From Dehalococcoidia bacterium (GTDB lineage Bacteria > Chloroflexota > Dehalococcoidia > GIF9 > AB-539-J10): a stretch of 64,000 nt of DNA. Numbering within the stretch: the stretch's first letter is position 1; every line of letters begins with the position of its first letter. The position numbers were made by a program, and so were the translations under genes. The DNA is taken from assembly GCA_030612025.1 (NCBI GenBank), contig JAUWOR010000004.1:1-64000 (forward strand), in the 5' to 3' direction. Under the pieces are notes generated by a model. The model did not search any database and was not told where the DNA came from. It worked only from the letters and a program-made list of their open reading frames with translations. This document shows, piece after piece, positions 48,798 through 64,000 of this stretch.

Positions 48798-48886
48798 TGG
48801 CGGAGAGGGTGGGATTCGAACCTGCGGTCACCAAAGGCAACATGCGCTCTCCAGTCGCGCCTGATAGGCCACTCCAGCACCACTCC
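48798..48886 (-). pseudogene. Degenerate full-length copy of tRNA-Ser(GGA)
   Basis: Colinear with 49283-49371, with substitutions that break the T stem, variable arm, anticodon stem and acceptor stem. Confidence 0.85.
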
Positions 48887-48901
48887 TATGCCCTTTTTGT
48901 C

Positions 48902-49002
48902 TCACCTCCTTTTAATTCGTATCTTCCGTGGTTCTATGATAATCAAGTTTCCCTCGAAGTCATCCTCAGATAGGTCGTTGAGTCTTTTTGTAGTTTTGGC
49001 AT
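48902..49002 (-). pseudogene. Remnant of a DUF5615-like PIN toxin (internal deletion)
   Basis: An ATG just after the DUF433 stop, then an out-of-frame tail KRLNDLSEDDFEGNLIIIEPRKIRIKRR* resembling the C-terminus of that family. Confidence 0.5.
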
Positions 49003-49003
49003 T

Positions 49004-49228
49004 TTATCCTGCTGCCTTGATCTCTTCGCTGGACAGGGTCTTAGCAGCATAGTCAAGGGCAGCTAATATATCCTCGTGAGTGATTTCGTACTCAGCCATA
49101 ACCTCCGCGTAGGTCATTCCTCCAGCAAGTTTGCCAATAATAAGGTCTACTGGGACGCGTGTCCCGCTAATCACAGGCTTACCAAAACGAATTTTCTCAT
49201 CCACGCTAATCCTCGGGGCTATTTCCAT
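49004..49228 (-). CDS. DUF433 antitoxin
   Basis: RISVDEKIRFGKPVISGTRVPV..EDILAALDYA. Confidence 0.9.
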   Translation of the reverse strand: MEIAPRISVDEKIRFGKPVISGTRVPVDLIIGKLAGGMTYAEVMAEYEITHEDILAALDYAAKTLSSEEIKAAG

Positions 49229-49282
49229 GGCGTTCCTCCTTTGATCATAATTCTTTATATCACTTTCTTCTCTAATTCAACT

Positions 49283-49371
<89 letters not shown>

Positions 49372-49384
49372 AGCTATACGTTCT

Positions 49385-49738
49385 TTAGCTGCTATTTGGC
49401 TCCAGCTCCTTTATGATTTTCCTTACTTTTACTCTTAAGGCAGGAATATCTTGCTTCACTGTATGCCAAACGGCGTCTATGTCCACGCCAAAATAATCAT
49501 GGATAAGCTTGTCTCTCGCTCCTGCCATCTTCTTCCAAGGTATATCTGGATATTTTTCCTTGAATTCTTGAGTTAACCTCTTAGTAGCCTCTCCCATTAT
49601 TTCAATCTCTCTCATCACACCAGCTTGAACTAAATTATTATCCATAAAATCCTTATATTTTACTTCTTTGGTGTATTCTTCGATTCGATATATAGCATCC
49701 AAAATATGCTTTAGATATACCTGATTGTCCTTCTTCAC
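49385..49738 (-). CDS. HEPN/DUF86 (HepT-like) RNase toxin
   Basis: YLKHILDAI, IMGEA, IPWKKMAGARDKLIHDYFGVD (Rx4H motif). Confidence 0.92.
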   Translation of the reverse strand: MKKDNQVYLKHILDAIYRIEEYTKEVKYKDFMDNNLVQAGVMREIEIMGEATKRLTQEFKEKYPDIPWKKMAGARDKLIHDYFGVDIDAVWHTVKQDIPALRVKVRKIIKELEPNSS

Positions 49739-50034
49739 TCGTAAATCACCACCATTTCCTTCTTTATCCTGTCAACTAAATAGGGGCTTATGGATTTTTC
49801 GGTTAGCAAATCTACCTTTATACCTAACGCTTCGGATAGTTCCTGTTCTATTCCTACAATATCAAGAAGAGTTTTCCCTTCCGAAAATTCAACAATAATA
49901 TCCATATCGCTTTCTGGGTTTGCTTCACCTCTTGCATAAGATCCAAAAATACTTACTTTCCTTACTCCATAGCTTGCGAGGATTGAAGTTACTTTTTTAA
50001 ATATTATATTTGTCGCAATTTTGCTTTTATTCAT
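49735..50034 (-). CDS. MNT (MntA-like) nucleotidyltransferase antitoxin
   Basis: FGSYARGE, SDMDIIV, KVDL. Start at ATG 50034. Confidence 0.92.
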   Translation of the reverse strand: MNKSKIATNIIFKKVTSILASYGVRKVSIFGSYARGEANPESDMDIIVEFSEGKTLLDIVGIEQELSEALGIKVDLLTEKSISPYLVDRIKKEMVVIYE

Positions 50035-50057
50035 CTTGTCGCCTTCATTTATCTCAG

Positions 50058-50146
50058 TGGCGGAGAGGGTGGGATTCGAACCCACGAGGCAATTGCTGCC
50101 CACCGCTTTTCGAGAGCGGCACCATCAACCACTCGGTCACCTCTCC
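50058..50146 (-). tRNA. tRNA-Ser(CGA)
   Basis: Anticodon arm CCGCT-CTCGAAA-AGCGG, long variable arm, encoded CCA. Confidence 0.95.
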
Positions 50147-59760: not shown

Positions 59761-60028
59761 CCTGTGTAGGCCAAGCTTGAGTCTTTTGGTGCTGTTCCGC
59801 TTTTATTAACACAAGAGGGTGGGGGTTCGAACCCTCAACCAAGGGGGAAAACAAGGGTTCCAGGGGTTCAGCAACTCTCCGACTCTTAATCAGCTAATTT
59901 CCGCCTGATTTGATTTTCTTACTTCACAACTGCTATGCTTTTCCACAAGAGGAGGCAGGCGGATTTCGCCCCTTTTGTAGCTCGGTTTGGGACCATGAGG
60001 TCGGAGGTTCGAATCCTCTCACCCCAAT

Positions 60029-60103
60029 GCGGGAGTAACTCAGTGGTAGAGTTCCTGCCTTCCAAGCAGGGTGTCGCGGGTTCGAGTCCCGTCTCCCGCT
60101 CCA
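60029..60103 (+). tRNA. tRNA-Gly(TCC)
   Basis: GCGGGAG acceptor, CCTGC-CTTCCAA-GCAGG anticodon arm, TCCA end. Confidence 0.95.
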
Positions 60104-60108
60104 AAATT

Positions 60109-60183
60109 GGGCTCGTAGCTCAGTGGCAGAGCGGCCGGCTCATAACCGGTTGGTCGTAGGTTCGAATCCTACCGAGCCCACCA
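60109..60183 (+). tRNA. tRNA with CAT anticodon (probably Ile2; elongator Met possible)
   Basis: GGGCTCG acceptor, GCCGG-CTCATAA-CCGGT anticodon arm, ACCA end; lacks initiator features. Confidence 0.9.
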
Positions 60184-61097: not shown

Positions 61098-61123
61098 AAG
61101 AAGGGCACAAAAATGCCCTTCTT
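61098..61123. terminator. Hairpin at the end of the 62751-61122 operon
   Basis: aagaagggca-caaaaa-tgcccttctt. Confidence 0.5.
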
Positions 61124-61709
61124 ATTCTTGCTCTTGATGGATTTCAAATTGATTGCTAAGTTTTTCATCTGGAAATAGTCTCTGGATTTCATCCCATTCC
61201 TCCTCTGGTATCCTTGAGAAGTAATCTCTTAATCTCATCCTAAGCAAATGTCTGCGCTTAACGTCTAACTCTAGTAGCTTCTCTGTTCCTATTTCTCGTA
61301 GCAAGGAACTCTTTATAGGCATCATCGTTGAGAAATCAACCACTGACTCACTACCAATAACTGGATTGTCTTCAAAGTAGAAATACTGTACAGGGTCATT
61401 ATCTGGCGTGTTTTCTCCATTTTCAATTAGTTTTTGATACTCTTCTGTTCCCTGTTTGAACGGCATTTTCAGAGATAGCGGAGCAACTAATACTTGTGGC
61501 CTCCTAGGTCTCAATTTTCCTTTGTCATCTGGATACCATTGTAGTTCGCAACAATGCGATAGGATAACTAGGTATGAGTAGGATATCTTGGGGCTTTGTG
61601 GGACCGTTATTTGATTTTCTTTTAGTCTTAGAAAATTCGCTTGCACATAATACGTTTTTTGAACAATGTCACCCTGTTTTAGTATATCAGACTTGTTCTC
61701 AACAAACAT
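61122..61709 (-). CDS. Hypothetical protein, possibly PemK/MazF-like fold
   Basis: Pattern QGDI..LVILSHCCEL..VLVAPL..VVDF..L...R..L...L..YFSR; fold call is by eye. Confidence 0.55.
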   Translation of the reverse strand: MFVENKSDILKQGDIVQKTYYVQANFLRLKENQITVPQSPKISYSYLVILSHCCELQWYPDDKGKLRPRRPQVLVAPLSLKMPFKQGTEEYQKLIENGENTPDNDPVQYFYFEDNPVIGSESVVDFSTMMPIKSSLLREIGTEKLLELDVKRRHLLRMRLRDYFSRIPEEEWDEIQRLFPDEKLSNQFEIHQEQE

Positions 61710-61746
61710 GGATATCTCATTTTACAAGATGTCTCTTTGCTACAAA

Positions 61747-61956
61747 TCAAACAGCACGTTTAGGCTTAGGATATGCCTTATCAGCCCTTTCCCTATCAAT
61801 AATGGTCAAAATCGCATAGTCTCCTGTTTCTGGCAGTTCAAACTCCTCAATTTCAATAGTGCCAGAAACAGAACTCGGTTCATTGCTAGTAAGAATGCCC
61901 GGACTGTAAATCCATGTAATCTCTTCTATTCTTGTAGCCTTTCCCTGCTTTGTCAT
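61747..61956 (-). CDS. Small hypothetical protein (69 aa) with an acidic central stretch
   Basis: Strong GAGGAGG RBS overlapping the end of the upstream gene. Confidence 0.6.
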   Translation of the reverse strand: MTKQGKATRIEEITWIYSPGILTSNEPSSVSGTIEIEEFELPETGDYAILTIIDRERADKAYPKPKRAV

Positions 61957-61959
61957 TTT

Positions 61960-62751
61960 TTATTCCTCCTCAAGTAAAATAGACGTTAGTCTTTTTCTCT
62001 TAATCCATTTGAAGGTATTACTTGGCAACACTAATCCAACATCTATTTCTCCACCAACGGATGGAATCACGTTCGCAAATCTCTGATAGTTTGCTGTAGT
62101 TTCAATTAGAAAATTACAATAATCTATTGCATCCTGTACTGACCACGCAGGATATGGCTGCTGTAACTGAGGTCCTAATCCTTTGAGTTCCCAAAGTTTT
62201 ATTGCTACATAGGTTGTACCACTTACTGTCGTGCCAAAACCAGTCCATTCTTTCAGCAAATTTCTCTTGCCGATATCAACGCTGATTGATATTGGATTTC
62301 CTTCTTCATATCCAACAATTTGGAATCCCATAACATATTTGTCTTTAGGTATCTTATTAAACTCCTTCTCTCCCATAGCTTTCTTTAATTCATTCTGCAA
62401 ATATCTAGCCAATTCATCAGCTGTTTTTCTTAAACCATCCTCTTCTCTGGTATTTTCAAAACACCTGATACAAGCGAATACCGATTTATTTCCTATAGCA
62501 CCTATTCCATGAGTTCCTACCCCAAGCTTATGCCACAGCGGCTGGATTTTCTGCGAATAAGGTAACGTTGTTGATACTCCCTGACCCACTGGCACTTCAA
62601 TTGCAGCACTAAATTCATGCTCTTTCCCACAATTTGGGCATGTTGTTTTGCCTTTAGCTGATAGCTTAGGTGGCTGCATATGAATTGTTGACATGCTATC
62701 AGCTGCTATTACAATTCCATCAGGCACCCTAGTAGACGCAATTAAAGTCAT
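61960..62751 (-). CDS. Proteasome-beta-like Ntn hydrolase with a zinc-ribbon-like insert
   Basis: Starts M-TLIAS..DGIVIAADS (Thr1 nucleophile pattern), contains CPNCGKEH, SG, and C-terminal SVGGEIDV. Start moved to ATG 62751. Confidence 0.75.
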   Translation of the reverse strand: MTLIASTRVPDGIVIAADSMSTIHMQPPKLSAKGKTTCPNCGKEHEFSAAIEVPVGQGVSTTLPYSQKIQPLWHKLGVGTHGIGAIGNKSVFACIRCFENTREEDGLRKTADELARYLQNELKKAMGEKEFNKIPKDKYVMGFQIVGYEEGNPISISVDIGKRNLLKEWTGFGTTVSGTTYVAIKLWELKGLGPQLQQPYPAWSVQDAIDYCNFLIETTANYQRFANVIPSVGGEIDVGLVLPSNTFKWIKRKRLTSILLEEE

Positions 62752-63048
62752 TTTGAAATTATACCACCAACGCACCAATATAATATTTAAAGTGTAACCA
62801 CTTGTATGCCCTATCCTGCATTTTCCTACAGTTCACGACTACTGTCAAGTTACATCATGGCCCATTATCAGAAGAAACAACAAGTCTATGTTTTGTTATG
62901 CTTGTGACGAAAGCCAAATCCCTTCTCAAAAGTTGCTCAATCCTCCGATAAAGCCTAAAGCTATCCTCAAACTTCACTGACCCAAAAAACATTGATTTGG
63001 AAGTGATCTAATGATTAGGTGCAGGTCATAAAGATAGCGGATAAGTCA

Positions 63049-63908: not shown

Positions 63909-64000
63909 CTAATCAGGCTCGGCCAAGGGATGATATTTGTGGTGGGTTTCTTCAGCATATTTATCTGAGGCATGGACATACCGGGTAGTGGTATCCAAAG
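63909..64000 (-). CDS. C-terminus of a tyrosine recombinase/integrase (partial)
   Basis: Manual translation LDTTTRYVHASDKYAEETHHKYHPLAEPD*, with the TTxxYxH catalytic-Tyr motif. Confidence 0.7.
   Translation of the reverse strand, partial: LDTTTRYVHASDKYAEETHHKYHPLAEPD

Follow-up and report, generated by a model that had tools for sequence, protein, structure and literature searches.

Antitoxin instability is central to toxin–antitoxin modules and is normally attributed to the housekeeping proteases Lon or Clp. CRISPR type III signals drive CalpL-CalpT-CalpS and Craspase, in which a Lon-like or caspase-like protease frees an effector by cutting its tethered inhibitor. A protease domain tied to many toxins is described for RosmerTA RmrA and the NetFlax ImmA hub D25 in the available part of PMC10440598, and for the proteasome homologues Fuchs, Alva and Lupas (2021; PMC8665760) report, in the portion of their text available here, that they found no genomic context hinting at function. 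In this study, we analysed a three-gene unit, designated g1, g2 and g3, that lies in a 64,000-nucleotide (nt) stretch of DNA from Dehalococcoidia bacterium (assembly GCA_030612025.1, contig JAUWOR010000004.1, positions 1–64,000), the whole of which is referred to as the window. An earlier note made from the letters of the window (the original prediction) had proposed a protease-gated toxin module at this place. We propose, with moderate confidence, a module of three parts: a dedicated protease (g1), a two-part antitoxin (g2) on which it acts, and a toxin (g3) that this antitoxin holds.

The fold of g1 was assessed on an AlphaFold2 (AF2) model with a predicted local distance difference test (pLDDT) score of 83.0. 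Foldseek matched the model to 20S subunits (best E-value 2.2e-7), and VIA, a search independent of Foldseek, returned the 20S beta subunit 8adn_a (Z-score 17.2, root-mean-square deviation (rmsd) 3.3, 185 residues aligned), Anbu 5loy_A (Z 17.0, 19% identity), BPH (Z 13.8), HslV (Z 12.8) and connectase 6zw0_A (Z 10.5). As modelled, g1 is a proteasome-beta/Anbu/HslV-type N-terminal nucleophile (Ntn) hydrolase with the alpha-beta-beta-alpha sandwich fold. In several of the VIA alignments residue 2 of the model pairs with residue 1 of the mature enzyme, and of the 26 aligned homologues, 23 carry Thr and three carry Ser directly after the initial Met; Thr2 is the candidate nucleophile, assumed to be exposed as the mature N-terminus by the removal of Met1. 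D11, G12, A16, D18, S19 and K68 are invariant in the alignment of the 26 homologues, the g1 of the window reading PDGIVIAADS, and hhalign against eight Chloroflexota HslV sequences placed T2, D18 and K68 on T1, D17 and K33 of HslV, at a probability of only 22.6%. The original prediction had pointed to a Met-Thr start, a DG.VIAADS motif and an unusual CPNCGKEH insert in this gene; each is present, and its assignment to the relatives of proteasome beta and HslV is borne out by the fold match and by the conserved Thr, Asp and Lys positions. Among sequences in the PDB the best match to g1 was the N-terminus of proteasome beta-2 (E 1.1), and a PF00227 search of the host genome found nothing.

An insert of about 35 residues sits between the catalytic Asp and Lys of g1. 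In the model it forms two strands, E30–37 and E44–51, with flanks (residues 21–28 and 54–64) below pLDDT 50, and the cysteines C38 and C41 of CPNCGKEH are at least 90% conserved in the 26-homologue alignment. A zinc ribbon was considered for this insert and not called, there being only two conserved cysteines and zinc-ribbon Pfam matches below threshold (E 0.03–0.25).

The AF2 model of g3 (pLDDT 84.6) was matched by Foldseek to the MazF proteins of S. aureus and B. subtilis (E 2.8e-4, target-normalised template-modelling (TM) score 0.66). The VIA search returned MazF-mt3 8zws_A (Z 10.7, rmsd 2.8, 104 residues aligned), SaMazF 4mzm_A (Z 10.6), CcdB (Z 9.3) and Kid (Z 8.0), followed by type III toxins at Z 4.0–6.6, with unrelated folds at Z 3.4 or lower. 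On the basis of this model, g3 has the MazF/CcdB toxin fold, that is, the SH3-like barrel of the CcdB/MazF superfamily, with about 55 additional barrel residues and a C-terminal helical hairpin relative to MazF. The resemblance to PemK/MazF folds, which had originally been suspected from the pattern QGDI..ILSHCCEL..VAPL..VVDF, is upheld by these searches, and the pattern itself lies on conserved columns, the close relatives sharing Q12 G13 D14, S51, C53, C54, L56, P77 and D125. A PDB sequence search with g3 gave chance-level matches only, and an Atlas search returned unnamed clusters only. A profile search of 1.84 billion representatives recovered 118 relatives at E ≤ 0.001; in a 40-row alignment of this wider superfamily (alignment A5) the conserved positions are Q12 G13 D14, S51, C54, K144, R153 and R166, and a Pfam scan of 60 distant relatives placed none of the 60 in any family. 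With these 118 representatives g3 founds a MazF-fold superfamily that carries no annotation.

The host genome contains a second, very distant g3-like gene (locus L086; contig C14, 97146–100472). Its product has 257 residues and the motif VVSQDCDLEW, and profile A5 matches it at E 9.5e-6. Immediately upstream is a gene of the TIGR04255 family (E 1e-38). Another Chloroflexota genome (L084) has the same pair, which possibly represents an independent two-gene module based on this MazF-fold superfamily.

Homologues at E ≤ 0.001 numbered 27 for g1 and 23 for g3, all unannotated, and both are therefore real genes rather than chance frames; in six g1/g3 pairs of matches the longest contigs are given with equal lengths, which suggests that these pairs share contigs. 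The closest relatives of the host's g3 are labelled Dehalococcoidales or Chloroflexi. No significant match was obtained for g1, g2 or g3 in Pfam, NCBIfam, PADLOC or PHROGs, in keeping with the original statement that the unit belongs to no named system. In PADLOC-DB v2, none of the three had a component match at E ≤ 1; none was found for the g1 relatives or their second genes either, and the SDH protease described below reached only E 0.022.

Gene order was then surveyed around relatives of g1 and g3. Among 56 genome loci with a g1 relative, the g3 profile (A2) detected g3 in none, which rules out an obligate g1–g3 pair. The third position after g1 is instead filled by PIN proteins in 9/56 loci (seven by Pfam, two by BLAST cluster), by ParE-like proteins in 8/56 (two by ParE_like Pfam, one of them sub-threshold, the others by tblastn) and by Fic/Doc proteins in 6/56 (five by Pfam, one clipped at a contig end). 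The small gene that follows g1 starts between −40 and +60 nt from the g1 stop codon in 34 of the 56 loci, and tblastn adds 12 more. Members of the Doc group come from Armatimonadota, Myxococcota, Thermodesulfobacteriota and Spirochaetota, a spread consistent with horizontal transfer of the whole unit, and the viral contig L122 carries g1, then Doc, plus an integrase. In four Poribacteria loci (L011, L013, L014 and L021; 4/56) the third position is held by a protein of 136–146 residues with no match in Pfam or NCBIfam, directly followed by genes for HsdM, the methylase of type I restriction-modification systems; this protein is a candidate new toxin family.

At 13 other g1 loci (L018–L020, L023, L026, L027, L029, L031, L032, L034, L041, L042 and L049) the small protein is helical, with the consensus start MSFAY.QGQE..AL.F.EK.L, and no toxin gene was recognised at any of them.

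A quick maximum-likelihood tree of g1 was built from 54 rows trimmed to the conserved start and 285 residues, leaving out L027, L049, L051 and L056, which are split or fragmentary, and the very distant L054 and L055. The type of third gene tracks the g1 clades: for all groups together the tree needs 10 changes, shuffled labels need 35.5 on average, and none of the 200 shuffles was as low. In the Shimodaira–Hasegawa-like approximate likelihood ratio test (SH-aLRT), support was 100% for the single branch that holds the MazF-like group (4 rows), also 100% for that of the ParE group (8 rows), and 99% for the helical group (11 rows).

From the side of g3, nine other loci were found. The order g1-g2-g3 recurs in four of them (L060, partial, and L061, L062 and L063); in another four (L057, L058, L064 and L065, the last two encoding identical proteins) an SDH protease (PF01972) replaces g1, and L059 has neither layout. 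L063, on an 18.8-kb metagenome contig, has the trio at positions 146–1890 right after the genes for the small and large subunits of a phage terminase, with an exonuclease-like phage gene further on, and this copy is apparently carried by a phage or prophage. The co-occurrence of the trio that the original prediction called for is thus found in part, as g1 and g3 also take other partners; because they do, the unit is a modular protease, linker-antitoxin and toxin design and not a fixed trio. Of the overall interpretation offered at the outset, the folds of g1 and g3 stand and the trio as a fixed unit does not.

The SDH protease of the g3 loci is a ClpP-like protein of 331–335 residues (PF01972, E 1e-19 to 1e-22); after it come a small gene of 88–106 codons and then g3. 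Its family was represented at 35 genome loci across many phyla, 31 of which were examined. At seven of the 31 the third gene was recognised, encoding PemK in L089 (PF02452, E 4.7e-26), PIN in L090 and L110, Doc in L113, YafQ in L108 and g3 in L087 and L088, two loci on the contigs already listed as L058 and L057. Since phrog_11747 matches the SDH protease at E 1e-60, this protease is common in phages. At the loci L091–L116, from many phyla and including a Klebsiella sp. (L107), the SDH protease is followed by a Ser-rich protein of 57–92 residues with the shared motif ..Y.D.S.SS...SSADP.SL..IIKN and no recognised toxin.

The middle protein links the two kinds of locus. g2 has no Pfam, NCBIfam, PADLOC or PHROGs match, and its two parts behaved differently in BLASTP: residues 40–68, the C-terminal module, match the small protein of an SDH-type g3 locus at 59% identity over 29 residues (E 2e-10), with E 9e-8 in a second such comparison, and residues 1–39 gave no match to it. 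Residues 7–63 of the SDH-type small protein of L087, in turn, align with the corresponding protein of L089, the SDH-PemK locus (E 1e-6). These matches indicate that the N-terminal module of the middle protein tracks the type of protease and the C-terminal module the type of toxin, and the g2 C-module accompanies g3 under either type of upstream protease. Because the Doc-type middle proteins of g1-type and SDH-type loci gave no BLAST alignment with each other, the mosaic claim is limited to the g3-type middle proteins. A g2-type gene with a conserved C-terminal module is present in eight of the nine other g3 loci. In a MAFFT alignment of 20 g1-type middle-protein N-termini, inspection by eye found a basic tail that leads into an alternating hydrophobic pattern, in many cases with Pro at its end, and the centres of the middle proteins are of low complexity and Ser-rich. 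Judged from these sequences, g2 is presumed to be a two-part linker and antitoxin. In the Poribacteria locus L025 (6001–7486) one open reading frame (ORF) of 433 residues joins a g1 homologue to the second gene, and a ParE-like gene comes next.

In the mechanism we favour, g3 would be the toxin, a divergent protein of the MazF/CcdB fold, and g2 a two-part antitoxin whose C-module would bind and neutralise g3 and whose N-module would tether g2 to g1 or present it as a substrate. g1 would be an active threonine protease maturing by loss of Met1 only, with no propeptide, and would act on g2, most likely by cutting its disordered Ser/Pro-rich middle or otherwise by degrading it. Made unstable in this way, g2 would release the toxin once its supply stops or the protease is switched on, so that g1 could work either by constant turnover, as a host-independent addiction or abortive-infection timer, or upon activation by a trigger, for which the original prediction had suggested phage or stress, and we infer that the module may serve phage defence or element maintenance. 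Two unrelated protease folds precede homologous g2–g3 genes, and g1 has invariant catalytic residues, which argues for proteolysis as the shared function, and the Ser-rich, low-complexity centres are plausible cleavage targets for a protease that has no unfoldase. The design would also exist in versions with the unrelated SDH serine protease, which is ClpP-like, and with no fewer than five further toxin families. Tentatively, and with less assurance than for the module itself, these loci can be seen as a general class of self-contained proteolytic toxin switches, made of either of two ATPase-free proteases (Ntn or SDH), a mosaic small protein and one of at least six toxin folds: the MazF-like g3, PemK, PIN, Doc, ParE-like and YafQ.

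If this is true, an orphan family of proteasome homologues would acquire its first function, and toxin–antitoxin modules would exist that are independent of the host's Lon and Clp, which would explain their spread over more than 10 phyla and phages. A protease encoded by the module itself, of which two unrelated kinds are seen, would amount to a separate design of control able to move between hosts, and the mosaic middle protein implies a testable rule, namely that the N-module selects the protease and the C-module selects the toxin. The modular design appears to be undescribed. A search of the full-text literature, supplements and subscription journals not being covered, gave no paper that ties a proteasome-like/Ntn or SDH protease to toxin–antitoxin or defence modules, and the available parts of PMC10440598, PMC10865869, PMC11980606 and PMC8665760 make no such link.

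Several results weigh against the proposed module. PF00227 gave no match to g1 at E ≤ 1, and, with the low hhalign probability, the tie of g1 to proteasomes at the sequence level is weak. g3 matched no Pfam family at E ≤ 1, PF02452 (PemK) included, and g2 has no DNA-binding domain of the usual type II antitoxin kind in Pfam or NCBIfam. Close relatives of g3 carry PRRP and APLS, with an Arg that is not conserved in the 40-row superfamily alignment, and at what we take to be the catalytic Arg and Thr/Ser positions of the MazF RNase g3 has no conserved Arg; an RNase activity of g3 is therefore unsupported, and its toxicity is predicted from the modelled fold and the gene position only. Many of the loci and tree rows come from related Poribacteria metagenome-assembled genomes and are not independent, so that the clustering on the g1 tree is partly inheritance. 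The 20 sequencing runs that contain the stretch are all metagenome DNA, from sediment, cold-seep and vent, and none is RNA. In complex prediction, g1 and g3 with g2 as partner scored 0.48, the best control and the control in which g1 was replaced both scoring 0.00, so that the signal depended on g1; between runs, 22% or more of the contacts coincide, and the partner has a pLDDT of 40 or higher. Of 157 solved complexes 116 reached the pass mark, as did 2 of 215 mismatched pairs, and scores of 0.60 or lower were obtained for only 18 of the 157 and for both of the mismatches that passed. This prediction, for which no interface is reported, lends weak support to a complex of g1 and g3 with g2.

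The third gene is also frequently missing from the recognised set. There are 13/56 g1 loci, mostly from Verrucomicrobiota, with only g1 and a helical protein of 61–79 residues, about 16/56 have no recognisable third gene, and 24/31 of the SDH loci have the small protein and no recognised toxin. As so many pairs come without a toxin, the protease and small protein may have a function of their own. It is conceivable, though unlikely, that they are the actual core, either as a protease and its own inhibitor or substrate peptide, or as a two-gene toxin–antitoxin pair whose harmful partner is the unregulated protease; the third-gene toxins would then be add-ons using the small protein as a borrowed antitoxin scaffold, and g1 would not control g3. 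The usual translational coupling of the small ORF to the protease, seen in the 34 loci and the 12 added by tblastn, is consistent with such a core. It leaves unexplained why the slot has repeatedly gained at least six toxin families with both protease types, and why g1 and the second gene are fused in L025, although the two readings are not exclusive.

The conserved catalytic residues of g1 and the two-part build of g2, one module per partner, would suit a scheme in which g2 is an adaptor that delivers g3 to g1 for degradation, g1 holding the toxin at a low level and the loss of g2 or g1 then freeing g3. SocAB is a type VI system in which neutralisation proceeds through degradation of the toxin. 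We regard this scheme as quite improbable here, as no ATPase or unfoldase gene is present in the operon, a free-standing peptidase of Ntn or ClpP fold is unlikely to degrade at least six unrelated compact toxin folds without unfolding them, and the disordered Ser-rich linkers of the middle proteins are easier targets than the toxins.

The structural match of g1 to connectase raises the question of whether g1 acts as a protease at all, since it could be a connectase-like ligase or transpeptidase, or a scaffold or chaperone as SecB is in the TAC systems discussed below; the available part of Fuchs et al. (2021; PMC8665760) allows for non-protease activities in proteasome homologues. The unrelated serine protease fold of PF01972 takes the place of g1 before homologous g2–g3 genes, and the residues T/S2, D18 and K68 are invariant, which a mere scaffold would not call for, so that this reading is less probable still. 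Least probable of all, a harmless MazF-fold binder of nucleic acid or protein in a small regulatory or processing pathway would agree with the lack of the presumed MazF Arg, the absence of Pfam families among the distant g3 relatives and the TIGR04255-family genes that adjoin some of them, but it is set against established toxin families in the equivalent slot with both protease types, a sporadic distribution (4 of 301 sampled Chloroflexota genomes, where g3 relatives occur in other contexts), a low-GC site by tRNA genes, and relatives beside phage terminase genes or an integrase. The module in which g1 acts on g2 to control g3 remains the reading that we carry forward.

The features of the locus are collected in the table. 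As the original prediction had described, the three genes form a tight operon on the minus strand (with gaps of 3 nt between g1 and g2 and of 37 nt between g2 and g3, and a second gene of 69 codons) in low-GC DNA between a tRNA cluster and the tail of an integrase gene. For g1 there is an alternative start upstream of the ATG, a TTG at 62778, which would add nine residues. The GC content is 0.37–0.40 over 61.2–63.0 kb vs 0.47–0.53 over 59.8–61.0 kb on the tRNA side. The hairpin said to close the operon is likewise there, next to the g3 stop codon, with a weak T-tail, and is a possible terminator. The promoter-like site upstream of g1 is weak evidence, the region holding five such sites against a shuffle mean of 7.0, which is no excess. 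The recombinase beside the trio matches TIGR02224/TIGR02225 at an E-value of about 1e-48, under the equivalog cut-offs. A direct repeat of the tRNA 3′-end was sought at the far end of the low-GC stretch and none was found, so that integration of the stretch is not established. The host assembly consists of 19 contigs and 1.4 Mb and is 95.6% complete.

Features of the g1-g2-g3 locus and its surroundings in the window
Feature	Positions	Strand	Remarks
g1	61960-62751	minus	263 residues from ATG
Codon of g1 Thr2	62746-62748	minus	candidate nucleophile
g1 insert hairpin	62599-62664	minus	residues about 30-51; two strands, Cys38-x2-Cys41 at tip
g2	61747-61956	minus	69 residues
g2 C-terminal module	61753-61839	minus	residues 40-68; motif [DE]YA..T..DR.R..[KR].YP.P
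g3	61122-61709	minus	195 residues
Hairpin, possible terminator	61098-61123		symmetric, 10-bp stem; adjoins g3 stop codon; weak minus-strand T-tail (TTCTGT)
Promoter-like site	62820-62848	minus	TTGACA, 17-nt spacer, GAAAAT; upstream of g1
tRNA-Gly(TCC)	60029-60103	plus	borders low-GC stretch
tRNA-Met(CAT)	60109-60183	plus	borders low-GC stretch
XerC/XerD-like tyrosine recombinase, 3′ tail	63909-64000	minus	gene extends past the window
ORF of 166 residues	63049-63549	minus	unannotated; in low-GC stretch
ORF of 120 residues	60561-60923	plus	unannotated; in low-GC stretch
tRNA T-arm-like 19-mers	59817-59835 and 59999-60017		upstream of tRNA-Gly/tRNA-Met
tRNA-Ser genes	48798-50146	minus	three consecutive; anticodon GGA in two, CGA in one

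The low-GC stretch holds two further ORFs, neither of which is kept beside the trio in L061–L063. The product of the longer one is hydrophobic in its N-terminal part, as judged by eye, and has only sub-threshold Pfam matches, to VTT_dom and a coiled-coil domain of unknown function (E 0.06–0.09). Of the two additional T-arm-like 19-mers, one reads GGTCGGAGGTTCGAATCCT and the other is a variant of it; ARAGORN called no tRNA at either, and they may be missed or decayed tRNA genes.

Set beside the described systems, the locus shares the release logic of CalpL-CalpT-CalpS and Craspase only as far as the proposed mechanism holds, and differs from both in that no sensor or signal-producing gene stands at the trio locus. 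With MazEF, PemIK, Kis-Kid and CcdAB it shares, in the model of g3, the toxin fold (Z 10.7–8.0) as well as the small gene directly upstream, and the SDH locus L089 holds a true PemK_toxin in the same slot. It differs from these pairs in that g3 lacks PF02452 and has a distinct SxCC[DE]L motif, the additional barrel residues and the helical hairpin, in that g2 lacks a recognisable DNA-binding domain, and in that a protease gene is part of the operon.

The likeness to RosmerTA and NetFlax D25, as far as the available text of PMC10440598 goes, is that of a protease wired to varied toxins with partner swapping. Their protease is described there as a zinc metallopeptidase that itself counts as the antitoxin and that mostly occurs in fusion or in a pair with a helix-turn-helix (HTH) domain; here, in contrast, a threonine protease of Ntn type or a serine protease of ClpP fold is joined by a separate two-part small protein, and that part of the text mentions no Ntn, ClpP or three-gene layouts. 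In toxin–antitoxin–chaperone (TAC) systems (PMC5105189 and PMC6377645, in the parts available), the antitoxin carries a dedicated extra segment by which a third protein controls its stability, and in this it resembles g2. The accessory SecB chaperone of TAC protects the antitoxin, whereas here a protease-fold enzyme with a conserved catalytic set comes first in the operon. The ImmA-type and TAC systems are the nearest designs described, and both lack an Ntn or ClpP-fold protease as well as a separate linker of two parts.

Finally, among the orphan proteasome homologues, namely HslV, Anbu, BPH, connectase and families such as PMI/PHI/WPH, as presented in the available portion of PMC8665760, g1 shares the fold, the Thr after Met and the lack of a propeptide, as well as the lack of a nearby AAA+ partner, and it is about equally similar to Anbu and to the 20S beta subunit. 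Its insert, between the equivalents of Asp17 and Lys33, is not among the insertion sites described in that portion, in which the words toxin, zinc and operon do not occur. In contrast to what is reported there, the g1 family has a clear genomic context, which would be the first such clue to the function of a family of bacterial proteasome homologues.

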